Positions 39,324 to 58,396 are shown, counted from the stretch's first letter. The stretch: DNA of 64,000 nucleotides from an uncultured virus (IMG/VR IMGVR_UViG_3300030103_005758) (IMGVR_UViG_3300030103_005758); one strand, 5' to 3'. The notes: generated by a model not told the origin, from the sequence alone. Program-made: numbers and translations.

Positions 39324-39565
39324 AAAAAATACTTTATTTTACAGCAGCATGGTGTGGTCCATGCCAAGCATTAGGTCCTATAATGGATTCATTACAAGGA
39401 CAAATCAACTTTGATAAAATCGATGTTGATTCAAACACTGAACTATCAGCTCAATATGGAGTTAGAGGAGTTCCTTCATTAATTCTTTTAGAAAATGAAA
39501 AAGAAATTAATAGATTAGTAGGTGTACAATCAAAAGAGAATATACTTAAATTTTATAATGGGTAA
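39320..39565 (+). CDS. trxA: Thioredoxin
   Basis: WCGPC, 'VRGVP'. Confidence 0.95.
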   Translation: MKKILYFTAAWCGPCQALGPIMDSLQGQINFDKIDVDSNTELSAQYGVRGVPSLILLENEKEINRLVGVQSKENILKFYNG

Positions 39566-40683: not shown

Positions 40684-41437
40684 TCACGAGGTACCTAAGG
40701 TTTTATTAAATAATAGTCGAGAATGGAATGATTATGATTATTGTTTACCTCATCTTTTAGATGAAGATGAACAATATAAAAATTTTTTCTATGAATCTAA
40801 AAAACAAGGTCGTTATATCATTATGGATAATTCACTTCATGAATTAGGTAAAGCATATAATCACGAAAGATTATTACACTGGATAACAGAATTACAACCA
40901 AATGAATTTATAGTACCTGATGTTTGGATGAAACAAGCCCAAACTTGTGCTCAGGCAAAATATTGGTTACAATTTAAATATCCTAAAAATACTAAAATAG
41001 TAGCTGTAGTACAAGGTGAAGATAAAGTTAAAGCACATTTATGTGCTAGTTTAATTAGAGATTTAGGATATAATAAACTTTGTATATCTTATGGTGCGGG
41101 TTGGTATGGTGATAATCCTTTAAATAAAGCCCTAGGTAGAATAAATTTTGTTAAAGAGTTGTTAGAAGATAAAAGATATAAAGATACTAAATTTCATTTA
41201 TTAGGTTGTGCTGTACCTCAAGAGTTTGGTTGGTATAGAAATGAATCTCAAATAGAATCAATTGATACCTCAAACCCAATAATGGCAGCTTTAGAAGGAA
41301 TTTCGTACACAAAAAGTGGTTTAATAGAAAAACCAAAAGCAAATATGAATACTCATTTTGATATTAATCCTGAAGAAATAGATTATAATAAAATACTAAA
41401 AAACGTAAAAAGATTTAGAACAATAAATGGTTTATAA
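40673..41437 (+). CDS. TGT-fold / DpdA-like 7-deazaguanine transglycosylase (putative)
   Basis: 'IMDNS..E', 'VPDV', 'VVQG', 'FHLLG', 'SIDTS' match the TGT/DpdA motif order; lies between queD and queC. Confidence 0.6.
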   Translation: MKISHEVPKVLLNNSREWNDYDYCLPHLLDEDEQYKNFFYESKKQGRYIIMDNSLHELGKAYNHERLLHWITELQPNEFIVPDVWMKQAQTCAQAKYWLQFKYPKNTKIVAVVQGEDKVKAHLCASLIRDLGYNKLCISYGAGWYGDNPLNKALGRINFVKELLEDKRYKDTKFHLLGCAVPQEFGWYRNESQIESIDTSNPIMAALEGISYTKSGLIEKPKANMNTHFDINPEEIDYNKILKNVKRFRTINGL

Positions 41438-41625
41438 TGGCAGAAATAATTAGACATATTAGTGGAATGTGTGGTGAACATTTTCACCCAAACATTTGGC
41501 ACCTTTTATTAGGTGGGGTTGGAATAACAACTATTTTATCGTATATTAGTTTATACTTAAAATGTAAATTTAAAGCGTTTGCCTATACGCTTAATAATAC
41601 CTGGCAAAAATTTAAATTAAAATAG
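41437..41625 (+). CDS. Small membrane protein with HxxGxCGExH motif
   Basis: Coupled ORF; one TM segment. Confidence 0.5.
   Translation: MAEIIRHISGMCGEHFHPNIWHLLLGGVGITTILSYISLYLKCKFKAFAYTLNNTWQKFKLK
41573..41607 (+). promoter_or_regulatory. Candidate H-type pseudoknot upstream of queC
   Basis: AAGCGT/ACGCTT stem; loop TTGCC is complementary to GGCAA at 41603. Confidence 0.4.
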
Positions 41626-41627
41626 AA

Positions 41628-42422
41628 ATGGCAAAAAATGTCGTAGTATCCTTATCTGGAGGGATGGATTCCTCAACTTTATTACTTAGATGTTTATCTG
41701 AGTATGATAACGTAACTGCTTTATCTTTTGATTATGGTCAAAAACATAGAGTAGAATTAGAAAGGGCTCAATCATTAATTAACTATGTTAATGAAAATGG
41801 GCAAAATGTAAATTACCAAGTTATTAAATTAGATGGTTTAGTTAATTTATTAGAATCAAATTTAGTAGATGGGGGTGATGATGTACCTGAAGGACATTAT
41901 GAAGAAGAAAATATGGTTGCAACTGTAGTACCTAATAGAAATAAAATATTTGCTTCTATTACCCAAGCAGTAGCATTATCTATAGCAAATAAAACAGAAG
42001 AATCTTGTGATATTGCTTTAGGTATTCATGCTGGCGACCACGCAATTTATCCTGATTGTAGACAAGAATTTAGAGATGCTGATGATGCAGCATTTAGAGT
42101 TGGTAATTGGAACTCAGAAACTGTGGGTTACTTTACACCGTATTTAGAAACAGATAAATTTGGAATACTACAAGATGGACAAATCCTTGTTAAGAACCTT
42201 GGAATTGATTTTAATGAAGTATATAGACGTACTAATACTTCTTATAAACCTTTCCCTAGCGGTAATAGCGATTATAAATCAGCGAGTTCAGTGGAAAGGA
42301 TTGAAGCATTCATTAAATTGGGTGTCAGTGACCCTGTACAATATGAGGACGAAACTGGGCCGGTAGATTATGAAGTTGCGAGAAAACATGTTGAAAAGTT
42401 ATTAGCAGAATATTCGGAATAA
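41628..42422 (+). CDS. queC: 7-cyano-7-deazaguanine synthase
   Basis: 'SGGMDS', 'FDYGQKH..EL', 'VPNRN', 'YPDCR.EF'. Confidence 0.92.
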   Translation: MAKNVVVSLSGGMDSSTLLLRCLSEYDNVTALSFDYGQKHRVELERAQSLINYVNENGQNVNYQVIKLDGLVNLLESNLVDGGDDVPEGHYEEENMVATVVPNRNKIFASITQAVALSIANKTEESCDIALGIHAGDHAIYPDCRQEFRDADDAAFRVGNWNSETVGYFTPYLETDKFGILQDGQILVKNLGIDFNEVYRRTNTSYKPFPSGNSDYKSASSVERIEAFIKLGVSDPVQYEDETGPVDYEVARKHVEKLLAEYSE

Positions 42423-42686: not shown

Positions 42687-43205
42687 ATGGAAACAATAAA
42701 TTTATTTCCCCAAATTTTAAAATCATTTAAGTATTCTAATAATACTAATTTTCTTTTAGAAGAAATAAATAAAATTAAAGCTTTATATCCAAATAAAGCT
42801 CCTTCTTTATTTAAAGATGCAATTTATACTTCTCCAAATTTTCTTTTTCAAAGTTATAAAAATTTTAAATTTTTAGAAAATGATATAAAATCATTAGTTT
42901 TAAAAAATTATAATAAAAATTGTAAAATTACTGATTCTTGGATTAATATATATTATAAACATGGGTATAATGATTTCCATAACCATTTTAAAAATGATCT
43001 AGCAGGGGTATTATATTTAAAGGTTCCAAAATCTCATCCTGGGATTAATTTTCATAATAAACATAACCCTATTCAAATATTTAATTATAAACCTCCCTCT
43101 AATACAATAATCTTCTTTGATGGTGATCAATATCACAGTTCTTTTCCTAACCCTGAAAATACTGAAAAAATAATTATAGCGTTTAATATATCTTTTAAAG
43201 ATTAA
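42687..43205 (+). CDS. 2OG-Fe(II) oxygenase (TIGR02466-like)
   Basis: 'SWIN', 'HNH...LAGVLYL', 'YHSS', 'IIAFN'. Confidence 0.75.
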   Translation: METINLFPQILKSFKYSNNTNFLLEEINKIKALYPNKAPSLFKDAIYTSPNFLFQSYKNFKFLENDIKSLVLKNYNKNCKITDSWINIYYKHGYNDFHNHFKNDLAGVLYLKVPKSHPGINFHNKHNPIQIFNYKPPSNTIIFFDGDQYHSSFPNPENTEKIIIAFNISFKD

Positions 43206-43257: not shown

Positions 43258-45093
43258 ATGGCTACATTAACCAATAGGACTATAAGATCGACTTACGATC
43301 AACTTTTACAACTAGAAGATAATTTAATTCAAGACGGTTTTGGAACTCATTCTTTAAGTGGTTCCTATAATCTTACTGGAAGTCAATTTATATCTGGTAA
43401 TCTTCATATTAATGGTACAGCTTCTATTGATTATTTAGTTTCTTCTTATGAATCATCATCTATTATTTTTAGTTCAGGTTCAACAAAATTCGGAGATGAC
43501 ACTTCAGATACCCATGAATTTACGGGAAGTGTTCTAATAAGTGGTTCCGCTTTTAGTACAAATTGGAGTGGATCCTTTACTGGTTCATTTATTGGTTTAG
43601 CAGATTCTTCATCTAATGCGACAAGAGCAGTTACTGCTTCACAAGCTGATAGAGCTACAACATCTTCCCTTGCTAATAAGGCCTCTAATCTACAAATAGT
43701 TGGAGAAGATTCAAGTGCAGCCACTCATTATGTTCTTTTTGGCCCTAACTCATCAGGAGAATCTGATGTTAATGCAGATGGTAATTTAAATTATGTACCC
43801 AATACTGAAACTTTAACAGTTACTAAAGTAATAGGTAATTTAGAAGGAACAGCATCAAATGCTGATACAGCATCTGTATTATTAGGTTCTGTAATTTCGG
43901 CTTCTCATTGTGAGACCGCTTCACTAGCAATTTCAACATCAGTAGTTAATGTTACTTCAACTTCATTTGCAAACAGTGGTGATGGTCCATTTACTGGTTC
44001 ATTTTCATCCAGTTTACCTTCATTATTATCCGGTTCATTTACAGGTTCCTTTACTGGCTCATTAGTTGGTAATACATCAGTTAGTAACATACTACAAACT
44101 GGTACTACTCAAACAACGGGATCTAATACTATTTCTGGGTCATTAACAATAACAGGAAGTTCAACTTTAGCAGTAAGAATAACTGGTAGTACAGCTTTAA
44201 CAGGAAGTCTATTACAAAGTGGCAGTATTGTATCAACTGGAAGTTTATTACAAAAAGGTAGTACACAAATTTCAGGTTCTACTCTTTTATCAGGTTCATT
44301 ACTTTTAACAGGTAGTAGTACCCTGGCATTAAGAGTTAGCGGTAGTACAGCTTTAACGGGTAGCTTACTACATAGTGGTAGTACAGCCCTAACGGGGAGT
44401 TTATTACAAAGTGGTAGTATTGCATTAACTGGAAGTTTATTACAGATTGGTACTACACAAACTACTGGATCTAATATTATATCTGGATCATTATTAATAA
44501 CAGGTAGTTCTGCAATAGGACTTAGAATGTCTGGAAGTACGGCATTAACGGGTAGTGTTTTCCAAACAGGATCACTTAATGTAACTGGTAGTACTAATTT
44601 ATCTGGATCTTTAGTAATAGTAGGAAATATTAATACGGGACAGGGTGTTACAGAAGTATATTTACAAAACCAAAATTTAAGAACAGCTGATTCAGTACAA
44701 TTTAATGGACTAGGAGTTGGAACAGCACCATCAGGAGTAGCAGGAGCTATTTTAGCTACTAATGATGTTGTAGCATTTGCTTCTTCAGATGAAAGATTAA
44801 AGGAAAATCTAGAACCAATTGGAAGTGCTACAGAAAAAATAGGACAATTAACTGGTTATACATTTGATTGGATTCCAATGGAAGGAATTCATGTACATTC
44901 AGGACATGATGTTGGAATTATTGCTCAAGAAGTAGAAAAGGTACTTCCTGAAGTTGTAGAAACAAGAAAAAATGGTTATAAAGCTGTTAAATATGAAAAA
45001 CTTACAGCATTACTTATACAAGCCCTTAACGAACAACAAAAAGAAATTGATAACCTTAAAAGTAAGGTTGGATCGTTAGAAAATCGTTTGTAA
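43258..45093 (+). CDS. Tail fibre with S74-like chaperone, outside the structural module
   Basis: TGS repeats, 'SGSTKFGD..D.HEFTGS', 'SSDERLKENL...GIIAQEVE'. Confidence 0.8.
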   Translation: MATLTNRTIRSTYDQLLQLEDNLIQDGFGTHSLSGSYNLTGSQFISGNLHINGTASIDYLVSSYESSSIIFSSGSTKFGDDTSDTHEFTGSVLISGSAFSTNWSGSFTGSFIGLADSSSNATRAVTASQADRATTSSLANKASNLQIVGEDSSAATHYVLFGPNSSGESDVNADGNLNYVPNTETLTVTKVIGNLEGTASNADTASVLLGSVISASHCETASLAISTSVVNVTSTSFANSGDGPFTGSFSSSLPSLLSGSFTGSFTGSLVGNTSVSNILQTGTTQTTGSNTISGSLTITGSSTLAVRITGSTALTGSLLQSGSIVSTGSLLQKGSTQISGSTLLSGSLLLTGSSTLALRVSGSTALTGSLLHSGSTALTGSLLQSGSIALTGSLLQIGTTQTTGSNIISGSLLITGSSAIGLRMSGSTALTGSVFQTGSLNVTGSTNLSGSLVIVGNINTGQGVTEVYLQNQNLRTADSVQFNGLGVGTAPSGVAGAILATNDVVAFASSDERLKENLEPIGSATEKIGQLTGYTFDWIPMEGIHVHSGHDVGIIAQEVEKVLPEVVETRKNGYKAVKYEKLTALLIQALNEQQKEIDNLKSKVGSLENRL

Positions 45094-45103
45094 ATTACCT
45101 TTA

Positions 45104-46213
45104 ATGAGTTATAATATTTTAGGAATTAACAGCAGTCATAATGGCTCAGTTTGTGTTTTATGTGATGGGGAAATTGATTTTTTTGTAGAAGAAGAAAGAT
45201 TTTCTAGAAATAAACATGAAGATACACCTGTAGAAATTTTAAAATATGTTGCTTCTAAATATAAAATTGATGAAATTGCTATTGGTGGTTTAGAAATTCT
45301 TTTTGAAGCAAATGCTTCAAAAATTTATCAAAATTATTTAAAACTTTTATTCAAAAATACTCCACTTACTAATTTATTAGGATCCCATCATCTTTGCCAT
45401 GCTTTTTCTAGCTTTAGCAGTTCAGGTTTTAATAAAGCTTTATGTGTAGTTATAGATGGGTCTGGAAGTTTATTATATAGAAAAGAGGATGAAAAATTAA
45501 TAGGAGTAGAAACTGAAAGTATTTTTACTTTTAAATATCCTACAAATATAAGCACTATATATAAATCTTATAAAACTTTTAATCCTAATGATGATAAAAG
45601 TACAGATAGTAAATTAATGAATTTTAATATTACTTTAGGAAAATTATATGAAAGTATTACTACTAAATTATTTGGACATTGGGTGTATGCCGGTAAGACT
45701 ATGGGTTTATCTTCTTATGGAAAATATGACAAAAATATTCCTTCATTAATAATAAACCAAAGAGCTAATCCTAAATTTTTAGCAGGAAAAACTACAACTA
45801 ATATTAAAATGGATCTTAATGATGTTGAAGGTACCATAAATACAAAGTATGATTATTTATTTAAAGAAGAATTAAAGTCTAATATATGTTATCATTTACA
45901 AAATGAGATACAAGAAGTTGTAGGAGATATAATAGAAAAATATGTAAAAAAAACAGGATTAAAAAAAGTTTGTGGCTCCGGAGGTTATTTTTTAAACTGT
46001 GTATCAAACTATTATTTAAAAAAAAGATTTCCTGATATAGATTTTTATTTTGACCCAATATCAAATGATGCAGGTATAGCATTAGGTGCTGCTAAATTAT
46101 TGTGGCATATGAGAAAAAATGATACAACCATAAGACCTCAAAAAACATTATATAATGGGCCAAAATATACTAATAAAGAAATTTATAAAAAAATTCAAGA
46201 ATATTTGGATTAG
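45104..46213 (+). CDS. NodU/CmcH carbamoyltransferase, N-terminal (Kae1-like) domain only
   Basis: 'ILGIN.SHNGS', 'EEERFSR.K', 'HHLCHA', 'DGSG', 'GKTMGLSSYG', 'GGYFLNCV', 'DAG'. Confidence 0.85.
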   Translation: MSYNILGINSSHNGSVCVLCDGEIDFFVEEERFSRNKHEDTPVEILKYVASKYKIDEIAIGGLEILFEANASKIYQNYLKLLFKNTPLTNLLGSHHLCHAFSSFSSSGFNKALCVVIDGSGSLLYRKEDEKLIGVETESIFTFKYPTNISTIYKSYKTFNPNDDKSTDSKLMNFNITLGKLYESITTKLFGHWVYAGKTMGLSSYGKYDKNIPSLIINQRANPKFLAGKTTTNIKMDLNDVEGTINTKYDYLFKEELKSNICYHLQNEIQEVVGDIIEKYVKKTGLKKVCGSGGYFLNCVSNYYLKKRFPDIDFYFDPISNDAGIALGAAKLLWHMRKNDTTIRPQKTLYNGPKYTNKEIYKKIQEYLD

Positions 46214-46251
46214 TTATATAGTTATATTATATTGGGACTAATATTAGTCCA

Positions 46252-46282
46252 AGTGACAGTAAAACCACTATAAAAAATTAAC
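46252..46282 (+). ncRNA. Candidate preQ1-I-like riboswitch aptamer upstream of queE
   Basis: AGTG-ACAGTAAAAC-CACT-ATAAAAAA-TTAAC immediately before the ATG. Confidence 0.45.
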
Positions 46283-46284
46283 AT

Positions 46285-47058
46285 ATGCTTAAAAGAATAG
46301 ACGATTATTCTAAACGTCTCCCAGTATTAGAATTATACACAGCAGTACAATCGGAGGGATCCAGACAAGGATATCCTACTATTGTAGTTAGAACAACAGG
46401 CTGTACACACAGATGTTATTTTGGAGAAGGTGGATGGTGTGATAGCTGGTATACATCAATACATCCTGAAAAAGGAAAATATAATTTTCAAGATATTATT
46501 GATATGTACGATAAACATCCCCATATAAAGGAGATGATGTTAACAGGAGGATCACCAACAATGCATCCTGCTTTAGTAAATGAATTAACACACCTAGCAA
46601 ATGAAAGAAATATTTTCATTACCATCGAAACTGAGGGATCTCATTTCCTTCCCACTGACTTTCCTATTGGTCTCCTTAGTATTAGCCCTAAATTCAGTAA
46701 TTCAGTTCCTACTCTCGGTGCTACAACTCCTCAAGGACATACTGTGGAGCAGAAGATGATTGATAGACATAACAAGTATAGATTAAATAAAGAAGCTATA
46801 AAAAAGTCTATTGAATATCATAATGATTACCATATTAAACCCGTATTAGATAAAGATTTAACTATGGTAGGTGAAGTAGAAGAATTCATTAAAGAACTAG
46901 ACATTCCAGATCATAAAATTTGGGCAATGCCAGCAGGTGATGATAGGGAATCATTATTTGAAAGTTATGGTCCTGTAATGAACTTTGTAAGGGATAGAGG
47001 TTGGAGATATACCGGTAGATCCCATATAATGGCCTTTGATACAGAAAGAGAGGTTTAA
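46285..47058 (+). CDS. queE: 7-carboxy-7-deazaguanine synthase (radical SAM)
   Basis: 'ELYTAVQSEG', 'RTTGCTHRC...WCDS', 'TGGSP', 'IETEG', 'SISPK'. Confidence 0.9.
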   Translation: MLKRIDDYSKRLPVLELYTAVQSEGSRQGYPTIVVRTTGCTHRCYFGEGGWCDSWYTSIHPEKGKYNFQDIIDMYDKHPHIKEMMLTGGSPTMHPALVNELTHLANERNIFITIETEGSHFLPTDFPIGLLSISPKFSNSVPTLGATTPQGHTVEQKMIDRHNKYRLNKEAIKKSIEYHNDYHIKPVLDKDLTMVGEVEEFIKELDIPDHKIWAMPAGDDRESLFESYGPVMNFVRDRGWRYTGRSHIMAFDTEREV

Positions 47059-47193
47059 ATGGATAAGGAAGAAGCACTCCAAATTTTAGAAGAAATAAAA
47101 GAAAATGTAAATGTCTGCTGTGCCGTTACTATGGAACCAGAAGATGTATTAGAATTAATAGATAAATTAGAAAGTTATATAAATGAACAATAG
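47059..47193 (+). CDS. Small acidic protein (44 aa, not in ORF track)
   Basis: MDKEEALQILEEIKENVNVCCAVTMEP...NEQ*; bridges queE and folE. Confidence 0.55.
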   Translation: MDKEEALQILEEIKENVNVCCAVTMEPEDVLELIDKLESYINEQ

Positions 47194-47875
47194 AAAACAA
47201 CAACACACAGATTTAGAATCTGTACCAGTAGGTTACGCAAATGGTGTAGCACCTGGATTTCCTTTAACAGATAAGGAAAAACAAAAAATGATAGATCGTG
47301 CTGCAAAAGCATATGGTAAATTCTTAACTGAATTAAAATGTGATTGGGAAAATGATCCTAATTCGGCTGATACACCAAGACGTGTAGCTAAAGCCTATGT
47401 AAATGATTTATGGGAAGGTAGATATACTGCTATGAGTGAAGTAACATCTTTCCCAAGTGATGGTTATGATGGTATAGTAATAGAAAGAAATATACCAATT
47501 ACATCAATGTGTTCTCACCACCACCAAACTATAAAAGGTTTAGTACATATAGGTTATATCGCAGATGAAGATGGTAGAGTAGTTGGATTATCTAAATTAA
47601 ATAGGATAGTAGAATTATTTGGTAGAAGAGGAGCAATACAAGAACAATTAACATCAGCGATTCACAATGCTGTAAACACTATTTGTACGAATAATAAAGG
47701 TGTTATTGTTACAGTAGTAGCTACACATAATTGTGTTAGTTGTAGAGGAGTAAAACATCATGGAGCTTCAATGGTTACAACAAAAGCATCTGGTGTATTT
47801 ATGCAAAATGAAAACTTAGCTAGAAAGGAGTTTTTTGATTCAATTAAAGTTAATAATGGAAATCATCCTGTATAA
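47183..47875 (+). CDS. folE: GTP cyclohydrolase I
   Basis: 'TPRRVAK', 'SMCSHH', 'GLSKL.R', 'QEQLT', 'HNC..CRGV'. Confidence 0.95.
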   Translation: MNNRKQQHTDLESVPVGYANGVAPGFPLTDKEKQKMIDRAAKAYGKFLTELKCDWENDPNSADTPRRVAKAYVNDLWEGRYTAMSEVTSFPSDGYDGIVIERNIPITSMCSHHHQTIKGLVHIGYIADEDGRVVGLSKLNRIVELFGRRGAIQEQLTSAIHNAVNTICTNNKGVIVTVVATHNCVSCRGVKHHGASMVTTKASGVFMQNENLARKEFFDSIKVNNGNHPV

Positions 47876-48312
47876 TGGTAATAGAATTAAATGATAAAGC
47901 ATTCCTATCATGGGATGACATAGAAAAACAAGTTGATAAACTTGTAGAACAAATAAATAAAATGGATAAAAAACCATTTTACATTTATGGTGTGCCTCGT
48001 GGAGGAGCCATTCCAGCTGTATGGTTATCTCATAAAACTGGTATAAAATATCAACAAATTAATTCATCCCAAATATCAAAATCAGCAGATTTATCTCATG
48101 TATTGATAGTAGATGATATTTGTGATTCAGGAGAAACAATACAAAAACTTAAAGAAGATTTCCCTAAGTGTTTAACTGCAACTTTATATCATAAAGAATC
48201 AGCAATTGATAAACCAGATATTTATGGAGAAATATCCACGTATAATTGGTTATATTTTCCTTGGGAAAACCAACAATCCTCAGAAGTAAGAGATAACACA
48301 TATGGGTTATAA
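47875..48312 (+). CDS. Purine-type phosphoribosyltransferase
   Basis: 'SWDDI', 'GVPRGG.IPA', PRPP loop 'LIVDDICDSGET', 'W.YFPWE'. Confidence 0.85.
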   Translation: MVIELNDKAFLSWDDIEKQVDKLVEQINKMDKKPFYIYGVPRGGAIPAVWLSHKTGIKYQQINSSQISKSADLSHVLIVDDICDSGETIQKLKEDFPKCLTATLYHKESAIDKPDIYGEISTYNWLYFPWENQQSSEVRDNTYGL

Positions 48313-49366
48313 TATTCTAGGAGTTACTCCTGGTCATAATGGTTCTATAGCTTTAGTTTCAAACGGAAAATTAGTTTTTTATTTAGAAGAAGAAAGATTA
48401 TCTAAGGTAAAAAAAGATGCTAATCCATTAAAGACACTTTATTTTTCATTACAAAAATATAAGATAGATGAAGTAGTATTATGTGGTGCCGGACGTCAAT
48501 CACCAAACTTAGTCCGTAAAGGAGAGGATTTATATTATTCTATATCTAGAAAATTTTATCCTAAAGTAAAATTCACTAGTTATGAAGATCATCATCATCT
48601 AACACATGCAGCTTCTTCATTTTATACTTCTGGTTTTCAAAAATCTTTAGGAGTAGTAATTGATGCCCAAGGATCCAATTTTAATTATAAAGGAGAAAAA
48701 ATATTTGAAAATGATTCTTTATTTTATTGTGAATATCCTAATAATATTAATCCAATCCATAAAATATATCTTTCTGATTCTATTAGTCATTCAACTAAAC
48801 AAGAAAAAATTACACCCTTTTTTTCAACAGCAAAGGTTTATGAAGCAGTAAGTGAATATTTAAATTTTCATGAAGAAGAGGGTAAAACTATGGGTTTATC
48901 TTCTTATGGTAAGTCTAATTCTTTTATTTTAGATTTTTTAAAGGATGGAATAATAAACCCTAAATATTATACACATGAAAAAACTTATGGTTCTATATAC
49001 CCAAAAATGAAGTTCCCTAAAAATATCCCTCCTAAAGATATAGCATGGGAAATTCAAAATAAATCCCAACAAATAGTAGGTGATTATATAGAAAAAGGAA
49101 TTAAAGAAACAGGATTAAAACAAGTTTGTTGCGCTGGAGGTTATTTTTTAAACTGTGTATCAAACTATTATTTAAAAAAAAGATTTCCTGATATAGATTT
49201 CTATTTTGATCCAATATCCCATGATGGTGGAACCTCAATTGGAGCAGCTTTATATAGATGGTACAACCACTCTCAGGATAAGAGTATAAGACCTAGAAAA
49301 AATTTGTATAATGGTTTTAAATATTCTAAAAAAGAATTAAAAAAAATAATTAAAAAATATTTATAA
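48302..49366 (+). CDS. NodU/CmcH carbamoyltransferase, N-terminal domain only
   Basis: 'GHNGS', 'EEERLSK.K', 'HHLTHA', 'GKTMGLSSYG', 'GGYFLNCV', 'DGG'. Confidence 0.85.
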   Translation: MGYNILGVTPGHNGSIALVSNGKLVFYLEEERLSKVKKDANPLKTLYFSLQKYKIDEVVLCGAGRQSPNLVRKGEDLYYSISRKFYPKVKFTSYEDHHHLTHAASSFYTSGFQKSLGVVIDAQGSNFNYKGEKIFENDSLFYCEYPNNINPIHKIYLSDSISHSTKQEKITPFFSTAKVYEAVSEYLNFHEEEGKTMGLSSYGKSNSFILDFLKDGIINPKYYTHEKTYGSIYPKMKFPKNIPPKDIAWEIQNKSQQIVGDYIEKGIKETGLKQVCCAGGYFLNCVSNYYLKKRFPDIDFYFDPISHDGGTSIGAALYRWYNHSQDKSIRPRKNLYNGFKYSKKELKKIIKKYL

Positions 49367-49368
49367 TT

Positions 49369-49755
49369 ATGAAAGACTTTAATTCAAAAGATAAATCTAA
49401 AGGGTTAGGAGATACAATAGCAAAAATTACTAATGCTACTGGTTTAGATAAAATAGCCGATGCTGTAGCTAAAGCAGCAGGCGCCGAAGATTGTGGTTGT
49501 AATAAAAGGAGAAAAACATTAAATGAACTTTTTCCTTACACTAAAAAAACAGAAATTAAAAAACCACATATTAATACTAAACCTTTAGATAAAATTACTG
49601 GAAAATATGAGGTTATTCAAAAAATTCATTGTACCTTACCAGAATTAGGAAGGATAACTTTTAATAAAGGTTCTGTTTTATTAATAGATAAAAAACACCC
49701 TTTATATAAAGATATTTCTTTTTACTATAAAAAAAATATTATTAAAAAAATATAA
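49369..49755 (+). CDS. Hypothetical protein with GLGDTI...CGC..R motif
   Basis: Intact ORF. Confidence 0.65.
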   Translation: MKDFNSKDKSKGLGDTIAKITNATGLDKIADAVAKAAGAEDCGCNKRRKTLNELFPYTKKTEIKKPHINTKPLDKITGKYEVIQKIHCTLPELGRITFNKGSVLLIDKKHPLYKDISFYYKKNIIKKI

Positions 49756-51495
49756 ATGGCATATAATATTCTAGGAATTAATCCTGGCCATAATGGTTCT
49801 GCCGCCGTAATTTCAGATGGTAAGTTAGTTTATTATTTAGAAGAAGAAAGATTAACAAAAGAAAAAAGAGATGGAAATCCTTTTAAAACTATAATCGATA
49901 TTTGTTCTAAGTTTTCTATTAACGAACTAATAATAGGGGGAACAAACACCCCAGCTGAAAGGTCAACTTTATCTTATACTAAAGAAAATCCCTATTTTTC
50001 TCTTGTAAGAAAATTAAATTTAGGAATAGAAGACTATACAAATTTATCCAGCAGCCACCATTTATTGCATGCTTTTAGTAGCTTACATAATTCCCCATTT
50101 CAATCTGCTGCTGTTATAGTAGTAGATGGATGTGGGTCTTGGCTACACTATAATGATATTGCTCCTTTTTCTTCACTTGCAATAGAAGAAGGTAAAAATA
50201 ATAATGTTCATGAAGCTGAAAGTATATATGAGATAAATACAAATAAATTTCCAATTGAAGAGGGGATAGAAAAACATTATGTTAATTATATTAGTAATAA
50301 TATTAATGTTGAAACTAAATTTATTAATAGAAATCCTGGAATAGTTAAAGTATATGAAGGTATAACCGATTATTTAGGTTTTCATCCTTTAGATGCAGGA
50401 AAAGTAATGGGTTTATCTTCTTATGGTAAGTCAAATCCAAACATTCCTCCTTTATTTGTAAATCATAAAGGTAATTTAGATATATTTAAACCATCATACC
50501 CAGCAAAATGTGAATTATTAACTAACAACACCCCAGTACTACATGGTAATCAAAAAACCAAAGACTTTCATCATGATAAATCAAAACTTAATATGGTTTA
50601 TGCTGATTTAGCTTATGAAGTACAAACCCAAACAGAAAAAGAAATACATCACTTAATTGAAAAAGCTATAAATTTAACAGGTAATAATAATATTTGTATT
50701 ACTGGAGGGTATGGGTTAAATTGTGTAGCTAATTATAACATGAAAAAAAAATTCCCTAAGATAAACTTTTTTCATGATCCTGTATCTTTTGATGGGGGAA
50801 TATCAATAGGTGCAGCATACTTAGGATGGTTAATAAAAAAAGAGAAAAACGATAAATCAAAATCATTTTCACTTTATTTAGGCCCTAAATATTCTTTAAA
50901 AAAATATAAAAAACAAATTAAAAATTATTCAAAAATGTTTAACACTTATAAAGTAAATTATAAAGATGTAGCTAAAATAATTTCAGAAAGAAATATAGTT
51001 ACAATATTCCAAGGCAGATCAGAGGCTGGTCCTCGTGCTTTAGGAAATAGGTCCATTTTATACGATCCAACAGACCCTAATGGTAAGGATTTTGTAAATA
51101 AAGTTAAAAAAAGAGAATGGTTTAGACCATTTGCTGGTACTGTTTTATTAGAAAAAGCTAATGAATATTTTGATATGGCTGGTTTAAAAGAATCTCCGTT
51201 TATGATGTATGCAATGGATGTTTGGCCTGATAAACAAGATAAAATTCCTTGTATTACCCACGTAGATGGTACTTGTAGAATCCAAACATTAACCGAAGAA
51301 CAAAATCCACATTATTATAAATTAATTCAAGAATTTGAAAAAATAACAGGTGTACCTATTTTATTTAATACTTCATTTAATTTAGCAGGTGATCCACTTG
51401 TAGAGACAATTGAAGATGCATTAGAAACAATGCTTAAAAGTGAAATGAAATATATGTATGTTCCTGAATTAGAAATGCTTTTAGAGAAAAAATAA
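49756..51495 (+). CDS. Full-length NodU/CmcH carbamoyltransferase
   Basis: N domain as above plus C domain 'GRSEAGPRALGNRS', 'KKREWFRPFA', 'THVDGTCR.QT', 'NTSFN'. Confidence 0.93.
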   Translation: MAYNILGINPGHNGSAAVISDGKLVYYLEEERLTKEKRDGNPFKTIIDICSKFSINELIIGGTNTPAERSTLSYTKENPYFSLVRKLNLGIEDYTNLSSSHHLLHAFSSLHNSPFQSAAVIVVDGCGSWLHYNDIAPFSSLAIEEGKNNNVHEAESIYEINTNKFPIEEGIEKHYVNYISNNINVETKFINRNPGIVKVYEGITDYLGFHPLDAGKVMGLSSYGKSNPNIPPLFVNHKGNLDIFKPSYPAKCELLTNNTPVLHGNQKTKDFHHDKSKLNMVYADLAYEVQTQTEKEIHHLIEKAINLTGNNNICITGGYGLNCVANYNMKKKFPKINFFHDPVSFDGGISIGAAYLGWLIKKEKNDKSKSFSLYLGPKYSLKKYKKQIKNYSKMFNTYKVNYKDVAKIISERNIVTIFQGRSEAGPRALGNRSILYDPTDPNGKDFVNKVKKREWFRPFAGTVLLEKANEYFDMAGLKESPFMMYAMDVWPDKQDKIPCITHVDGTCRIQTLTEEQNPHYYKLIQEFEKITGVPILFNTSFNLAGDPLVETIEDALETMLKSEMKYMYVPELEMLLEKK

Positions 51496-51499
51496 AATT

Positions 51500-52696
51500 A
51501 TGAAAATATTAGGATTTAATCCTTCTCATCATAGCTCTACTTGTATAGTAAATAATGGTGAAATAGAATACTTCATCCAAGAAGAAAGAATAAATAAAAT
51601 GAAATATGTTTCTTTCCCAATGGAATCTTTTATAGAACTCCTAAAAAACAGAACCCCAGATGTAGTATGTTTCGCTGGTGCTAGTATATCTTTTCCACTT
51701 TGTGGCCAATCAGATGACAACCTTTGGCATGTAATAACTGATATTTACTTAAAAGAAAATTATGAATTTTTTGATTTTTCTTTTAGTTATGATCAAAAGA
51801 ATAAACCTAATGATGGAGGATTCCATCATATTGCACATGCTTCTAGTGCTTTTTATAATTCGGGTTTTAAAGAAGCTTTATGTTTAGTAGCAGATGGATT
51901 AGGATCTATTATTTTAAATAGTGGTACTGAAACTGAAACTCTTTTTAAATTTTCATATCCATCTTTTTTTGAAATACTACATAAAAAACTATATATGGAC
52001 AACTTTCCTAAACATGTATCAGAATCTCTCCCAGATAATATGACAATAACAACAAAAGTAAACCTAAGTAGAGTTTATGAAACTGTAACAATGTGGTTAG
52101 GGTTTAGTAGGAATGATGCTGGTAAAACTATGGGTTTATCTTCTTATGGAAAATATAATAAAAATATTCCTAATTTTTTAGATAAAGAAGGAGATGGAGA
52201 CCCCAATGTAATTATTGTTGACCGTGATAGAAAAGGAGAATATGAAATTGAAAAAGGATATCAGTGTACTTTTATAGATAAAGAAAAGAATCCTTATTTA
52301 AAAAACCAAGATGCAACAAAATGGCACCATAATAAATCAAATATAACAGACTTAGAAAAAGACGTAGCTTGGAAAGTTCAAGATGAAACACAAAAAAGAA
52401 TAGGTGATATAATAGAAAAAGGAATTAAAGAAACAGGATTAAAACAAGTTTGTTGTAGTGGGGGTTATTTTTTAAATTGTGTTGCAAACTATTATCTTGT
52501 AAAAAGATTTCCTGATATAGATTTTTATTTTGACCCAATAGCTAATGATGCTGGTACAGCTATGGGAATAGCTCAATTAGTTTATCATCACAAAACTAGA
52601 GATACTACTATAAGACCTTTAAAATCTTTATATTTAGGTCCAAAATATCCAAAAGAAGAACTATTAAAAGAAATTAAAAAATATGTGGATAACTAA
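51500..52696 (+). CDS. NodU/CmcH carbamoyltransferase, N-terminal domain only
   Basis: 'QEERINK.K', 'HHIAHA', 'DGLG', 'GKTMGLSSYG', 'GGYFLNCV', 'DAG'. Confidence 0.85.
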   Translation: MKILGFNPSHHSSTCIVNNGEIEYFIQEERINKMKYVSFPMESFIELLKNRTPDVVCFAGASISFPLCGQSDDNLWHVITDIYLKENYEFFDFSFSYDQKNKPNDGGFHHIAHASSAFYNSGFKEALCLVADGLGSIILNSGTETETLFKFSYPSFFEILHKKLYMDNFPKHVSESLPDNMTITTKVNLSRVYETVTMWLGFSRNDAGKTMGLSSYGKYNKNIPNFLDKEGDGDPNVIIVDRDRKGEYEIEKGYQCTFIDKEKNPYLKNQDATKWHHNKSNITDLEKDVAWKVQDETQKRIGDIIEKGIKETGLKQVCCSGGYFLNCVANYYLVKRFPDIDFYFDPIANDAGTAMGIAQLVYHHKTRDTTIRPLKSLYLGPKYPKEELLKEIKKYVDN

Positions 52697-52719
52697 TTTA
52701 AAAATATTATATTATCAAT

Positions 52720-53223
52720 ATGAAAAAATCAAACGTACCTTTTGTAAATGAAGTAGAAGATTTTAATAATTTAATGTCTAAACCAAATAATTATACACCT
52801 ACTATTCCTGAAAAAAAAGAATGGCAATTTGTATATGACTTTGTTTTAGAAGAATTAGAAGAATATAAAGAAGCATGTGAAAAGGGAGACATTGTAGAAA
52901 TATTAGATGCTTTATGTGATATAGCTTATGTATCTTTAGGAAATGGTACTATGCTTCATGGCCTAAAAGATAAAATATGGCCAGCTTATCAGGAAGTTCA
53001 GGCATCAAATATGTCAAAGGCATGTAAAACTGTAAACGAAGCTATTGAAACTACTCTTAAAAGATCTGAGGAACAAGGGGAACCTTGTCATTGGGAACAA
53101 GTAGGCGATATGTATATTGTGTATAGAACACGTGATCGTAAAGTAATGAAATCACTTACTTACTTTAGACCCGATCTAAAACAATTCTTTACCGATGAAG
53201 AAATTACTAACAGTACTAAGTAA
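52720..53223 (+). CDS. MazG-like nucleotide pyrophosphohydrolase
   Basis: 'EELEEY...EILDALCDIAYV', 'EV..SNMSK', 'KVMK'. Confidence 0.85.
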   Translation: MKKSNVPFVNEVEDFNNLMSKPNNYTPTIPEKKEWQFVYDFVLEELEEYKEACEKGDIVEILDALCDIAYVSLGNGTMLHGLKDKIWPAYQEVQASNMSKACKTVNEAIETTLKRSEEQGEPCHWEQVGDMYIVYRTRDRKVMKSLTYFRPDLKQFFTDEEITNSTK

Positions 53224-54507: not shown

Positions 54508-55098
54508 ATGATTGGTTTTCCTGAGTTTCAATTTACAAAACCTACATATATTCATCAAGAAGAAAATTTTTTTACTGGTGAAGAAGTAGATAAAATATTA
54601 AATGATTTAAAAGATGTATCTTATGAAAGGGGTGCAACAGGTGATTTTAATTCAAATAAAGATTCTTTATCACTTCAGATACGAAAAAGTAATATAAAGT
54701 GGATTCCACATGAAGAAAAATTTCATTGGTTATATGATAAACTATCAGCCCAAATTCATTTAATAAATTCTTTTACTTGGAAATTTAATCTTAATAATAG
54801 TTTTGAACACATTCAATACACTGAATATGATTCAAAAGAAAAAGGACAATATAATTGGCATGTAGATGTAGGAGAAGGAATGTCTTGTTTTAGAAAAATT
54901 TCAATTTCAATTCAACTTTCAAATGCTAGTGAATATGATGGGGGAGAATTTAGAATTTTTAACCAAAAAGGTCCAAGTCCTAAATCTAGAGGAACTGCAA
55001 TTATTTTTCCTTCTTTTATTCCCCATAAAGTTACACCCGTAACTAGAGGAAATAGGAAATCTTTAGTATTGTGGGTTGGTGGTAGTCCTTATAAATAA
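54508..55098 (+). CDS. 2OG-Fe(II) oxygenase (PKHD/prolyl hydroxylase-like)
   Basis: 'WHVD', 'RKISISIQL', 'Y.GGE', 'FPSF.PH.V.PVTRG.RKSLV.W'. Confidence 0.9.
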   Translation: MIGFPEFQFTKPTYIHQEENFFTGEEVDKILNDLKDVSYERGATGDFNSNKDSLSLQIRKSNIKWIPHEEKFHWLYDKLSAQIHLINSFTWKFNLNNSFEHIQYTEYDSKEKGQYNWHVDVGEGMSCFRKISISIQLSNASEYDGGEFRIFNQKGPSPKSRGTAIIFPSFIPHKVTPVTRGNRKSLVLWVGGSPYK

Positions 55099-55101: not shown

Positions 55102-56838
55102 ATGTATAAAAAAATATACGAGCAAGGTAGAGGAGAAAATAAACATTTAATACATCTTTGGACAGACGAGGGTTACGAAAAGATTGAATGGAACAACTAT
55201 GCTTATAAAGAATGTTCGCCTAATGATGCAGAATTTAAAGGTTTGAAAGGTGAACCACTTCGTAAAACACACACTTGGGATAGAAAAACCCCTAAACTCC
55301 ACTTTAGTGATATCTCAGCTCACCAAAAATTCCTTATAGAAAAATATGGTATTGACGATGAACCTTCTACTTCACATAAGGAGGTTTTTTTTGATATCGA
55401 GTGTGAGATGGGAGGAGCATTGACAGAAGAATATATTTCTAATGCACCTAAGCCAATTACTTCTATTGCTTGGTATGATAAACAAGCAGATTGGTGGTCA
55501 ATCGTTATTTTAGATAAAAAAGGTCAATTAAAACATACTAAAACTAAAAATAAAGAAATTATACCTTTACCACATGAGGCAGATCTATTAGATACATTTT
55601 TAAATAAAATGGAAGAAATTCAACCAGATATGTTAATTGGGTATAATAGTGACTATTTTGATATTCCTTATTTATACTATAGAATGTGTAATGTGTTGGG
55701 AGAAACAGATGCAAAAAGATTATCCCCTATAGGAATAGTTAAATACAAAAAGAATAATCAATATTGGTATAAAAAAGACCAATTTGTAGATATAGCAGGT
55801 GTTGAATCTCTTGATTATATGAGATTACATAAAAAATATAGTTGGGAGGATGAACCAAGTTGGAAGTTAGATTCTATTGGAGAAAAATATGCTGGTATAA
55901 ATAAAATTGAATATGATGGTTCTTTAGATAGATTATTTGAAGAGGATATACATAAATTTATTCAATATAACTTTGTTGATGTTGAAATATTAGTTGAATT
56001 AGATAAAAAATTACAATATATAGCTTTAACAAAAAATTTAGCCCATAAAGGTAAAGTAAAATATAGTGAAGTGTATGCTTCATCTAAAATCCATGATGGT
56101 GCTATCTCAGCTTACCTATTATCTCAGGGAATAATACCCCCAGGACGCCCTAAGGGGGAAAGTAAATTAAATTATGCTGGTGGTTACTTATTTTGCCCTA
56201 AAGCAGGGTTATACAAATATATGTTTGATGAAGATTTAACATCACTATATCCTTCTATTATAATGACTTTAAATATAGGTAGAGAAACTATTACAGATAC
56301 ATTACCCGAAAAATTAGAAGATTTTGGTCCTTATGGTGGTAAATCTGATCGAAATAACTATCTAGGTTTAGGTGATTTAAAAGAAATGGATCCAGATGAT
56401 GAAATTAGAGTTATGGATCCTAATGAAAATATTCAAAACACAACTGTAGGTAAAGTAATTGAAGTAATAGAAAAGAATAATTTTTCAATAGCGGCAAATG
56501 GAACCTTTTTTAGAACTGATAAACAATCAGTATTATCTACTATTTTAAATAAATGGTTTGATGAAAGGGTCATTTATAAAAATAGAATGAAGCACTGTTA
56601 CCAAAAGGGTGATAATGAAGGTGGTGCTAAAAATCATTTACTACAATATACAATGAAAATTTTACTGAATTCTTTATATGGAGCTACTGCCTTACCATCA
56701 TTTAGATATGGTTTACCAAAATCTATACTAAGTGAAGCAATTACATTATCAGGGTGGAGAATCATACAAGAATCTGCATTAGTTGCTAATACACATATGA
56801 ATAAAGTTTTAAGGAATGAAATAAAGTTAGCATTATAA
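55102..56838 (+). CDS. Family-B DNA polymerase, N-terminal part (3'-5' exonuclease, motifs A and B)
   Basis: 'FFDIE', 'GYNSDYFDIPY', 'YNFVDV', 'DLTSLYPSII', 'KILLNSLYG'; no DTDS motif. Confidence 0.9.
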   Translation: MYKKIYEQGRGENKHLIHLWTDEGYEKIEWNNYAYKECSPNDAEFKGLKGEPLRKTHTWDRKTPKLHFSDISAHQKFLIEKYGIDDEPSTSHKEVFFDIECEMGGALTEEYISNAPKPITSIAWYDKQADWWSIVILDKKGQLKHTKTKNKEIIPLPHEADLLDTFLNKMEEIQPDMLIGYNSDYFDIPYLYYRMCNVLGETDAKRLSPIGIVKYKKNNQYWYKKDQFVDIAGVESLDYMRLHKKYSWEDEPSWKLDSIGEKYAGINKIEYDGSLDRLFEEDIHKFIQYNFVDVEILVELDKKLQYIALTKNLAHKGKVKYSEVYASSKIHDGAISAYLLSQGIIPPGRPKGESKLNYAGGYLFCPKAGLYKYMFDEDLTSLYPSIIMTLNIGRETITDTLPEKLEDFGPYGGKSDRNNYLGLGDLKEMDPDDEIRVMDPNENIQNTTVGKVIEVIEKNNFSIAANGTFFRTDKQSVLSTILNKWFDERVIYKNRMKHCYQKGDNEGGAKNHLLQYTMKILLNSLYGATALPSFRYGLPKSILSEAITLSGWRIIQESALVANTHMNKVLRNEIKLAL

Positions 56839-56866: not shown

Positions 56867-58396
56867 ATGAATATATCAATTATAGGAGGAGGTACAGCAG
56901 GTTGGTTATCTGCTCTTCATCTAAATAAAATAAATCCAACAGCTGATATTTCTTTAATTGAATCTAAAGATATAGGAATAGTAGGAGTTGGTGAAGGAGC
57001 AGTTCCTCTTTTTGGGGATATGTTATTAGATCTTAATATAGACATTATTGATTTTGTTAATAGTGTTGACGGTACTTTTAAATTAGGGATTTCTTTTGAA
57101 GGTTGGAAAAATTTAGATCATAAATTTTTATATGGGTTTCCTAATTTTAATAGTAATGATGTAGCTAATTTTGAAAAAACTAAATTTGGTTCACAGAAAT
57201 ATGATATATATCCTATTTTTGCAAATATGATAGCTAATTCTCAAGATTGTAATATAATGCAAAATTCAATTTTAAGTTACTTAAATAAAGTTCCTTTTAC
57301 TTTTGATGAAGAATCTAAAAATGGTATCACCCAAGATGGAATTTCTCACGTATCTTTCCATTTTGATGCCTACAAAGCAGCTCAGTATTTTAGAAAAATT
57401 TCAGAATCTAGAGGTATAAAAAGAATTGAAGGAAAAGTTATTGATTTTAAATCTTCTAAAGACCAAAATATAAAAAGTATTATTACTGAAGATAAAAAAG
57501 AACATAAATGTGATTTTGTTTTTGATTGTACAGGGTTTGCTAAATTAATTATAGGTAAGCACTTTAAATCAAAATGGACTAGCTATAAAAGCCACTTAAC
57601 TACTAATGAAGTTATAAGTTTTAGATTAAAGTATAAAGAAAATGAAGAAGTATTTCCTTATACTAAGTCGATTACAATGAAAAATGGTTGGATGTGGCAG
57701 ATTCCATTACAAAGTAGAATTGGGGCTGGGTATGTTTATGATAATAGATACATTACTGAATCTCAAGCTAAAGAAGAAGTTGAAGAATTTTTAGGTGAAG
57801 AGATAGAAATATTAAAAAAAATTAATTTTGAACCTGGAATTTTTGAAGAGGGATGGATTAAAAATTGTGTATCAATAGGTCTTTCTAGTGCCTTTGTAGA
57901 ACCTTTAGAATCTACTTCTATAATGTTTACTATTTTGCAATTAAGATTTTTTAAAAGTAAAGATTTATTAGAACCAAATGAATTACTTCAAAAAAGATAT
58001 AATAAATATCAAACAAAATCATTTAAATCAATAATTGATTTAATTCAATTACATTATTTGTGTGATAGAAATGATACTAAATTTTGGAAAGATAGAAAAA
58101 AATTACCTATAACAACTCCTTTACAAAAACGTTTAAATGATTTTAAAAAATATCCTCTATCAGATTCAACATTTTTTGATGGTGTATGGGGGGCTTTAGG
58201 GTTTTTTGTAGTAGGATATGAAAGTAGTGTTAAAAATTTTCCTAAAAAACTCTACCAATTTTATAATAAAAAGCATAATTTTGATGGATTATTAAAAAAT
58301 TGGATTAAAGATTATAAACAATATTTTGATAATAAACTACCTAAATACTTTAAACATAAAGATTTATTAGATTATTTTAAAACAATAAAACCATGA
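56867..58396 (+). CDS. Flavin-dependent (tryptophan-type) halogenase
   Basis: 'GGGTAGW', 'GVGE', 'TFKLGI', 'FHFDA', 'DCTGF', 'GWMWQIPL', 'FVEPLEST'. Confidence 0.9.
   Translation: MNISIIGGGTAGWLSALHLNKINPTADISLIESKDIGIVGVGEGAVPLFGDMLLDLNIDIIDFVNSVDGTFKLGISFEGWKNLDHKFLYGFPNFNSNDVANFEKTKFGSQKYDIYPIFANMIANSQDCNIMQNSILSYLNKVPFTFDEESKNGITQDGISHVSFHFDAYKAAQYFRKISESRGIKRIEGKVIDFKSSKDQNIKSIITEDKKEHKCDFVFDCTGFAKLIIGKHFKSKWTSYKSHLTTNEVISFRLKYKENEEVFPYTKSITMKNGWMWQIPLQSRIGAGYVYDNRYITESQAKEEVEEFLGEEIEILKKINFEPGIFEEGWIKNCVSIGLSSAFVEPLESTSIMFTILQLRFFKSKDLLEPNELLQKRYNKYQTKSFKSIIDLIQLHYLCDRNDTKFWKDRKKLPITTPLQKRLNDFKKYPLSDSTFFDGVWGALGFFVVGYESSVKNFPKKLYQFYNKKHNFDGLLKNWIKDYKQYFDNKLPKYFKHKDLLDYFKTIKP

Follow-up and report, generated by a model that had tools for sequence, protein, structure and literature searches.

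Can an enzyme whose known forms carry their own activating domain still work when most of its copies in a genome lack that domain? The question is raised by a cluster of four carbamoyltransferase (CT) genes in a stretch of 64,000 nucleotides (nt) from an uncultured virus (IMG/VR IMGVR_UViG_3300030103_005758), which is referred to as the window. In class III (NodU/CmcH/TobZ-type) carbamoyltransferases, carbamoyl phosphate and ATP are converted to carbamoyl-AMP in a YrdC-like domain, and the carbamoyl group is transferred in a Kae1-like domain; all characterized class III holoenzymes carry both domains (PMC9633730; this and the other papers named by PMC numbers are cited for excerpts of their text). 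The four genes of the window lie on the plus strand within 7.6 kb (45104-52696). CT1 (45104-46213, 369 aa), CT2 (48302-49366, 354 aa) and CT4 (51500-52696, 398 aa) encode paralogs with the Kae1-like N domain only (N-only), whereas CT3 (49756-51495, 579 aa) encodes a full-length, TobZ-type protein, and CT4 starts 5 nt past the CT3 stop. We consider it rather probable that this phage has a two-component, shared-activator variant of the class III carbamoyltransferase, and that one activating module probably serves several transferases.

The Carbam_trans_N family (PF02543) is found in all four open reading frames (ORFs) at E-values of 1e-21 to 2e-24 (CT1, 1.6e-24; CT2, 1.1e-22; CT4, 1.4e-21), in agreement with the sequence-only reading of the locus, made before any database search, which had described four NodU/CmcH paralogs interleaved with queE, folE and a phosphoribosyltransferase (PRTase) gene. 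Carbam_trans_C (PF16861) is found only in CT3 (residues 406-571, E 9.5e-62) and is absent from CT1, CT2 and CT4. CT3 consists of a Kae1-like N domain (residues 1 to about 372), a linker (about 373-393) and a YrdC-like C domain (394-579). Within the 528 positions of phrog_1601, positions 1-340 are matched by the three short ORFs (2-340 by CT1) and 2-523 by CT3, with E-values over the four CTs of 1e-59 to 2.5e-154, and CT3 residues of about 190-570 match the PDB chains of 7xb6, GdmN, NovN and TobZ at E-values of 3e-55 to 2e-45. The C-termini of CT1, CT2 and CT4 (..KYL, ..YLD and ..YVDN, respectively) fall within 1-2 alignment columns, facing CT3 residues 389-393 in the linker. The motifs HHxxH, DGxGS, GKxMGLSSYGK, GGYxLNC and DxG are invariant in the four-way alignment. 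Two further claims of the sequence-only reading are therefore upheld, namely that three paralogs stop cleanly at the same inter-domain point and that all of them keep the metal and catalytic motifs. Ligands of the Fe/Zn site, that is, the two His of HHxxH and two Asp, were mapped via HMMER alignments to TobZ and GdmN and the published GdmN ligand list (H133, H137, D156 and D333; PMC9633730); they correspond to H98, H102, D121 and D308 in CT2 and to H101, H105, D124 and D346 in CT3. On sequence grounds, CT3 is classed as a member of class III, and CT1, CT2 and CT4 as half-members that fall short of two domains on a single chain.

The gaps to the next gene are short (72 nt from CT1 to queE, 3 nt from CT2 to an ORF of 128 aa, and 24 nt from CT4 to a MazG-like gene), so there is no room for a lost C domain after any of the three N-only genes. 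A C-domain hidden Markov model (HMM) run over the ORFs of the window found no C-domain ORF besides CT3, and neither a frameshift nor an internal stop is present in CT1, CT2 or CT4.

The N-only form is not confined to the window. A search with CT2 among proteins of 194-620 aa gave 986 matches at E <= 1e-10; among the best 120 of these, 111 are 330-390 aa long with PF02543 only, and 9 are 560-572 aa long with both domains. In 42 N-only sequences, which are 42-95% identical to CT2, the metal-ligand positions, GKxMGL and GGxxLN are all invariant. The 7.6-kb metagenome contig L084 has the same order as the window (N-only, 128-aa, full-length, N-only), with proteins 89-92% identical. The recurrence of the N-only form as a family, together with the gene order of L084, places the arrangement far beyond chance. 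Among the matches listed from scans of IMG/VR with CT2 or the N-only alignment, 83 of 83 loci have a single full-length copy and none is N-only; further IMG/VR scans found that N-only genes and genes for the C domain only (C-only) are present there.

Against L084, the ratio of nonsynonymous to synonymous substitutions (dN/dS, Nei-Gojobori) is 0.25 for CT2 and 0.44 for CT4, compared with 0.28 in the N-terminal part of CT3 and a range of 0.16-0.58 over five neighbouring genes; for the C part of CT3, dN is 0 and dS is 0.16. Judged by these ratios, the N-only genes are under purifying selection and are not decaying copies. Neutral evolution, which by the sequence-only reading would have refuted its own proposal, is not seen.

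Repeated sequence is also present in the cluster. A 300-nt repeat family lies at the 3' catalytic block of the CT genes (45899-46198, 49055-49354, 50623-50922 and 52379-52678), with 75-76% identity among the N-only genes and 61% to CT3, and a 56-nt patch of CT1 (45687-45742) is 93% identical to one of CT4 (52116-52171), while the proteins overall are only about 40% identical. These repeats and the patch would fit patches of gene conversion, and also recombination in the linker and tail, which are homologous. Such recombination could truncate genes repeatedly at one point, and the direct repeats (61-76% identical) and the N-only genes without a nearby C domain would fit the idea that the short genes are remnants being lost, cut at a fragile linker. 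We nevertheless hold this idea to be very improbable and close to refuted. The dN/dS values of 0.25-0.44 and the intact reading frames of all three genes count against it, as do the depth of the N-only clades and the hundreds of homologs, 40-60% identical, that keep a fixed length and invariant catalytic residues.

The other half of the enzyme also exists as a protein of its own. With CT3 residues 395-579 as the query, 6206 proteins shorter than 318 aa match at E <= 1e-10, many of which may be contig-end fragments. Among the best 120 of these short matches, 60 are 180-200 aa long; Met is the first residue in 55 of the 60, and in 40 of them the first residue lies -3 to +1 positions from where the C-domain model begins. 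Identity to the CT3 C domain is 82-92% in 14 clusters. In syntenic relatives of the window, C-only proteins (186-189 aa) are 86-92% identical to this domain and start at its Met394. The N-only proteins end opposite CT3 ..NYSK (389-393) and the C-only proteins start at CT3 Met394 (MF..YK..), so the two halves meet at the CT3 junction and are exactly complementary.

In the 51-kb IMG/VR record L156, the gene order is N-only, 2-oxoglutarate (2OG) oxygenase, N-only, queE, 2OG oxygenase, folE, PRTase, a homolog of the 128-aa protein, C-only, MazG-like, a 457-aa protein, 2OG oxygenase and family-B DNA polymerase (PolB). The C-only protein of this record has 186 aa (PF16861, E 8.9e-64), and the whole record holds two N-domain matches, one C-domain match and no full-length gene. 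In L198 (genome G004; 166,268 bp, 100% complete by CheckV), the 128-aa homolog is followed by a C-only gene (189 aa) and then by one N-domain gene, and these two are the only CT domains of the genome; because C precedes N, simple nonsense splitting of a full-length gene cannot explain the arrangement. In L158, which is a different T4-like phage, an N-only and a C-only gene abut, and in L166, L167, L182 and L185 the N and C ORFs overlap or lie 55-117 nt apart. The adenylate-forming and transfer modules are separate polypeptides in L156, G004 and L158, but only partly so in the window, where the C domain is fused to one N domain.

An in-frame fusion of the N domain with MazG in L198 (7046-8686, 546 aa) was considered as a link to nucleotide chemistry and is not leaned on, being a single case. 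About 30 unrelated residues stand in place of the usual tail and the fusion looks like frameshift read-through, and among the best 120 homologs none has an N domain and MazG on one chain.

How closely are the N-only genes tied to an activating domain? The CT ORFs of the metagenome loci were classified with an N-domain HMM built from the 42-sequence N-only alignment and with the C-domain HMM, built from CT3 and nine full-length matches. An N-only gene occurs in 27 of 72 metagenome loci, and 10 of these 27 also contain a full-length gene (L084, L091, L099, L104, L105, L107, L110, L111, L152 and L154). In all 10, the N-only start falls -4 to +5 nt from the full-length stop.

A quick IQ-TREE tree was made from 114 N domains (77 full-length and 37 N-only); incomplete N domains were dropped, and the IMG/VR set L001-L083 was thinned to the loci whose number is a multiple of 4. 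The N-only state clusters on this tree, where it changes four times, with at least three changes forced by well-supported branches, versus about 31 in shuffles; it arose at least three times. The CT4 clade (starred support 99) contains 11 N-only rows, 10 of which start right after a CT gene and 9 after a full-length one. The CT1 clade (starred support 98) contains 7 N-only rows that lie just 5' of queE and, where the locus extends that far, after a tail-fibre gene. The CT2 clade has 7 rows (SH-aLRT 94). In L152 the N-only gene groups as sister with the full-length gene next to it, and L098_14550 is an N-only gene inside a full-length clade (starred support 100 in both cases), each an independent origin.

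If one C domain serves several transfer modules, CT3 itself may hold a clue to how this is done. The C-domain module within CT3 (50935-51495, plus strand), which runs from Met394, is a candidate shared carbamoyl-AMP synthase with a possible internal translation start. Among 154 complete full-length CTs of the loci, 11 have a Met at this junction. It is present in 8 of 9 full-length genes with an abutting N-only gene versus 3 of 145 others (Fisher's exact 2e-10, a value that is not a probability of independent events, as the rows are related). The 11 junction-Met CTs have a median C-domain identity of 0.89 (0.84-1.00) and a median N-domain identity of 0.50 (0.40-0.90), whereas for other full-length pairs whose N domains are 0.45-0.55 identical (n = 1453) the median identity in the C domain is 0.62 (5-95% range, 0.50-0.68). 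At N identities of 0.40-0.55, the corresponding C values of such other pairs are 0.57-0.62. One constant activator combined with many divergent transfer modules would be the pattern that a shared-subunit system predicts. AT content is 95% over the 20 nt 5' of the Met394 ATG; among the genes of the window, as high a value occurs at 1% of 206 internal in-frame ATGs and at 24% of 55 annotated starts. This AT-rich stretch could equally be the relic of a fusion between an N-only and a C-only gene.

Is binding between the two halves plausible in structural terms? The complex of CT2 with the CT3 C domain was modelled with the 42-sequence N-only alignment for CT2 and a separate alignment for the C domain. 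In this multimer check, which the sequence-only reading had suggested, the predicted complex has an ipSAE of 0.93 versus 0.08 for the best of three controls, possibly through memory of solved full-length enzymes. The calibration mark is reached by 116 of 157 solved complexes and by 2 of 215 mismatched pairs, which is only a rough guide, as our own alignments were used. The model runs have at least 98% of contacts in common, and partner pLDDT is at least 93. The model supports binding, and what it shows is likeness only. On CT2, the modelled interface takes in residues 27-37, 194-202 and 282-310 together with all of the C-terminal tail (333-354). Conservation within the N-only family is 0.84 at these positions versus 0.56 elsewhere (Mann-Whitney p 2e-11). 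The tail itself has a conservation of 0.79 versus 0.59 for the rest; it is 20-24 residues long in 42 of 42 sequences and contains none of the catalytic motifs of the family.

Binding of this kind could also be expected if the N-only proteins were non-catalytic, serving as specificity, scaffold or regulatory subunits of the full-length enzyme, or as competitors for its C domain. The tight adjacency to full-length genes would suit such a role, the modelled binding is to the C domain, and HypF1, a Kae1-only carbamoyltransferase, is reported to interfere with the function of E. coli HypF (PMC9100943). We regard this explanation as improbable, since the metal ligands and adenylate-binding motifs are invariant in the 42 divergent N-only sequences, which is unexpected for a mere scaffold, and L156 and L198 have no full-length enzyme to regulate.

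Under the shared-activator interpretation, the mechanism would be as follows. The YrdC-like C domain of CT3 (394-579), the sole copy in the window, would make carbamoyl-AMP from carbamoyl phosphate and ATP, as expected from the chemistry of the family. Four Kae1-like transfer modules, namely the N domain of CT3 together with CT1, CT2 and CT4, keep the metal site and the adenylate-binding motifs and differ in the variable segments between them, and each would hand the carbamoyl group to an acceptor of its own. CT1, CT2 and CT4 would receive carbamoyl-AMP in trans. Most likely, an N-only protein would dock on the C-domain module through the surface that the full-length enzyme uses, including the conserved C-terminal tail of 20-24 residues; alternatively, the intermediate may be released, like threonylcarbamoyl-AMP (TC-AMP) in the synthesis of the tRNA modification t6A. 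A free C domain might come from internal initiation at Met394 of CT3, and domain exchange between chains would be a third way of sharing the tethered domain.

Several observations weigh against this interpretation. The only C domain of the window is covalently tied to its own N domain, so that three other proteins could reach it only under a further assumption, be it an internal start, an exchange of domains or an intermediate that diffuses. In six related loci (L086, L088, L090, L098, L100 and L108), which span all or most of the slot from PRTase to MazG, N-only genes are present there and a C domain is not; L098 has none over 21 kb. L098_14550 and L101_2811 look like full-length genes that were recently truncated at the C-terminus, with no partner nearby. 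The association of the junction Met and the hyperconservation of the C domain are not phylogenetically independent, and recombination exchanging the C module could give the same picture of conservation. The score of the modelled complex may be memory of the intramolecular interface solved in TobZ and GdmN, and conservation of the interface is confounded, as many of the same residues line the catalytic chamber.

The loci without a C domain lead to the possibility that the N-only proteins are autonomous enzymes. They might make their own donor from ATP and carbamoyl phosphate in the ASKHA site, use a host-made adenylate (carbamoyl-AMP, or the threonylcarbamoyl-AMP of TsaC), or carry out some other transfer, of an acyl or phosphoryl group. 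Besides the six loci, with the 21 kb of L098, autonomy is favoured by the ordinary branch lengths of L098_14550 and L101_2811, which seem to have lost their C domain, and by the existence of HypF1 without a known donor source (PMC9100943). On the other side stand the abutment of an N-only gene on each full-length gene in N-only-bearing loci (10 of 10), the C-only genes of syntenic relatives, including exactly one C-only and one N gene in the one complete genome, and the conservation of the docking tail; in addition, the excerpts of PMC9633730, PMC9100943 and PMC3814370 contain no mention of a Kae1-like domain that itself makes carbamoyl-AMP. Autonomy is, in our estimate, unlikely, with a chance that is still appreciable. 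The proposal of the sequence-only reading, that one adenylation domain feeds several transferases in trans, stands in part. It is strengthened by the stand-alone C genes, the abutment in 10 of 27 loci, the selection on the N-only genes, the hyperconservation of the C domain and the modelled complex, and it is left short by the six loci without a C domain and by the tethering of the C domain in CT3.

A more far-reaching version of the shared-activator interpretation can be put forward tentatively, as a rather improbable conjecture in which the YrdC-like domain would be an activator subunit that can be exchanged. CT3 may have two products, the full-length enzyme and, by initiation at Met394, a free carbamoyl-AMP synthase of 186 aa, the latter docking on CT1, CT2 and CT4 in turn, and carbamoylation of several nucleotide or DNA-base acceptors would lead to a combinatorially hypermodified genome. 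The acceptors would be, for example, hydroxylated or aminated derivatives of pyrimidines or 7-deazapurines from the neighbouring que, PRTase, 2OG-oxygenase and MazG genes.

What, then, might be carbamoylated? The sequence-only reading had suggested combinatorial carbamoylation of DNA bases or virion glycans. Modified nucleotides or DNA bases are weakly favoured by the gene context, with folE, queCDE, a weak DpdA-like match, the PRTase, the MazG-like enzyme and many 2OG oxygenases. The CT cassette lies inside a conserved module of folE, queD, queE, queC, PRTase and MazG-like genes beside PolB, and all four genes of the preQ0 pathway (folE, queD, queE and queC) are present in the window. The upstream part of the module (39522-42422, plus strand; Pfam) consists of a methyltransferase gene, queD, a 257-aa ORF and queC. 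Within the cassette, queE (46285-47058), folE (47183-47875) and the xanthine/guanine-type (purine-type) PRTase gene (47875-48312) follow one another on the plus strand, as assigned with Pfam, PHROG and NCBIfam, and this order is kept in L088, L089, L090, L098, L104, L156 and L198. The gene for a MazG-like (PRA-PH) nucleotide pyrophosphohydrolase (52720-53223, plus strand; PF01503, E 2.3e-10) is the next gene after the last CT of the window, as it is in 10 related metagenome loci; in L156 it comes after the C-only gene. Together, the PRTase, the preQ0 genes and the MazG-like enzyme suggest a possible conversion of a 7-deazapurine base into a nucleotide, which would resemble the toyocamycin route.

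The 257-aa ORF (40664-41437; phrog_19058, of unknown function), which lies between queD and queC, has a weak match to DpdA (NF041059, E 0.0017; 17 bits, where the cut-off is 200) and another weak one to DUF6610 (E 0.0028), with no sequence match in the PDB. L098 has the same order as the window, with an ORF of 261 aa between queD and queC. The protein may be a very divergent 7-deazaguanine DNA transglycosylase. A thymidylate-synthase-like hydroxymethylase (PF00303) has no match among the 65 window ORFs scanned, which counts against nucleotide or DNA acceptors; L098 has a ThyA-like gene 2.3 kb upstream of queD. The replication and modification region of the window is dotted with 2OG-Fe(II) oxygenase genes, at least five in number (31023-31595, 38760-39323, 42687-43205, 54508-55098 and 61361-61918), and relatives carry more. 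These oxygenases could make hydroxyl acceptors for carbamoylation. Judged by title and abstract, none of the papers listed by a literature search links carbamoyltransferases with 7-deazaguanine in phages. Sugars would be alternative acceptors, as around the cyanophage homologs; genes for glycosyltransferases, a phosphomannomutase and a cupin sugar isomerase, all present in the window, are in keeping with this.

The conserved 128-aa protein encoded between CT2 and CT3 (49369-49755, plus strand) was considered as a missing partner, either acylphosphatase-like or a carrier, and is not counted in the system. It has no Pfam or NCBIfam family and is found without a CT elsewhere, namely in 17 IMG/VR loci with flanks of up to 10 kb. 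It occupies the same slot of the cassette in 10 related loci, homologs being present in L084, L086, L088, L090, L091, L098, L100, L104, L108, L156 and L198. Residues C42, C44, H87, C88 and H110 are invariant, and these Cys and His may bind Zn. The AF2 model of the protein is weak, with a mean pLDDT of 62 and confidence limited to residues 70-128, and the best VIA-align hits (Z 4.8) are small beta-domain look-alikes. The membership of this protein in the CT system is doubtful. Its N-terminal motif, GLGDTIAKIT...CGC, is widespread in IMG/VR phage proteins, and 537 of 600 pattern matches encode a relative.

The window comes from a low-GC (about 30%) uncultured marine myovirus and encodes a tail sheath, baseplate proteins, gp32-like and UvsX-like proteins, ribonucleotide reductase, GroES/GroEL and a split PolB. 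A megablast of positions 45000-53000 against isolated phages gave no match, and the best isolate match of PolB is only 34% identical, so there is no close cultured relative. On the 5' side of the cassette, queC is followed by a 2OG oxygenase gene and then by a tail-fibre gene directly before CT1; on the 3' side, the MazG-like gene is followed by a gene for a 436-aa protein, a second 2OG oxygenase gene and PolB. The 436-aa protein has no sequence match in the PDB and no NCBIfam family, and Atlas gives viral hypotheticals only. PolB is divided into two ORFs (55102-56838 and 59006-59929) that lie 2.1 kb apart, the first covering the exonuclease and the beginning of the polymerase domain and the second corresponding to phrog_262 positions 565-851. 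Between them are a tryptophan halogenase gene (56867-58396), a cupin/mannose-6-P-isomerase-like gene and an ORF of 87 aa. The two PolB halves are also split by other genes in L198, and in L098 and L156 the first half is followed by other genes. At the far end of the window (1-14505), several large tail-fibre-like proteins with collagen triple-helix repeats and S74 chaperone domains are encoded, and the gene for a 769-aa double glycosyltransferase (5482-7791) among them hints at glycosylated fibres.

What would a shared activator mean more widely? TobZ-type enzymes are treated as obligate two-domain single chains, whereas in the marine phage data half-enzymes are numerous and so far undescribed, in an arrangement of one conserved activator with several divergent transferases. 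In the literature outside subscription-only work, our searches met with no account of phage carbamoyltransferases in N-only or C-only form, nor of a shared activator. If the hand-over in trans is true, the arrangement would be a natural plug-and-play scaffold for carbamoylation, of interest to natural-product and nucleic-acid enzymology, and a likely route to new modifications of phage DNA or glycans that affect restriction and the evasion of defence. The shared-activator interpretation predicts an internal start codon, and the cultured Synechococcus phage Sf-FS3 suits part of the testing.

The closest known enzymes are the class III proteins TobZ, GdmN, NovN and 7xb6, with which CT3 shares both domain families, the metal ligands and the motifs. 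Unlike these single chains, three of the four genes here lack the adenylating domain, and relatives of the window encode it as a separate protein of 186-189 aa. The phage enzyme for 5-hydroxymethylcytosine (5hmC) found by MetaGPA is likewise of the TobZ type and acts on 5hmC in DNA and on the triphosphate 5hmdCTP, and CT domains co-occur with PRA-PH on cytosine-modified contigs (PMC8670742). As in that system, a CT is accompanied in the window by a MazG-like (PRA-PH) gene, 24 nt after CT4. In contrast to the window, the MetaGPA enzyme is a full-length protein of 63 kDa paired with a thymidylate-synthase-like hydroxymethylase (PMC8670742), while the module of the window is built around 7-deazaguanine genes. 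The excerpts of PMC8670742 contain no mention of N-only or C-only forms, and the words 'truncated', 'YrdC' and 'Kae1' have 0 occurrences in them.

The nearest cultured system with a mixed architecture of full-length and N-only genes is that of Sf-FS3 (PV340856.1), in which a full-length CT (99761-101557) is followed 1.7 kb downstream by an N-only gene (103266-104423, 385 aa) annotated as 'carbamoyltransferase domain-containing protein'. It differs from the window in its gene context, which is of heptose and sugar-nucleotide genes and not 7-deazaguanine. In addition, its N-only protein ends earlier (..LYLGPE), with an identity to CT2 of only about 31%, and the junction Met is missing from its full-length gene. 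P-SSM2 was considered as another mixed case and set aside, since it has two full-length CTs, and the 370-aa gene that lies upstream of one of these is not recognized as a CT by the N-only profile.

Outside class III, HypF1 of Cupriavidus necator, a class II enzyme, is a Kae1-only carbamoyltransferase that exists alongside a full-length paralog, as here, and 'likely requires carbamoyl adenylate' (PMC9100943). It differs in its acceptor, a cysteine of the protein HypE, and in being a single copy; neither a multi-paralog family nor a stand-alone YrdC-type partner is described for it. A true division of labour is found in t6A synthesis, where the adenylate former TsaC/Sua5 (YrdC family) and the transferase TsaD/Kae1 are separate polypeptides, and where Sua5 hands the labile adenylate to Kae1, probably while the two are briefly in contact (PMC3814370). 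The donor in that pathway is threonylcarbamoyl-AMP, the acceptor is A37 of tRNA and the accessory subunits are different, whereas the phage proteins belong to the NodU/TobZ branch. By analogy, the phage system would most likely work like the pair of TsaC and TsaD.

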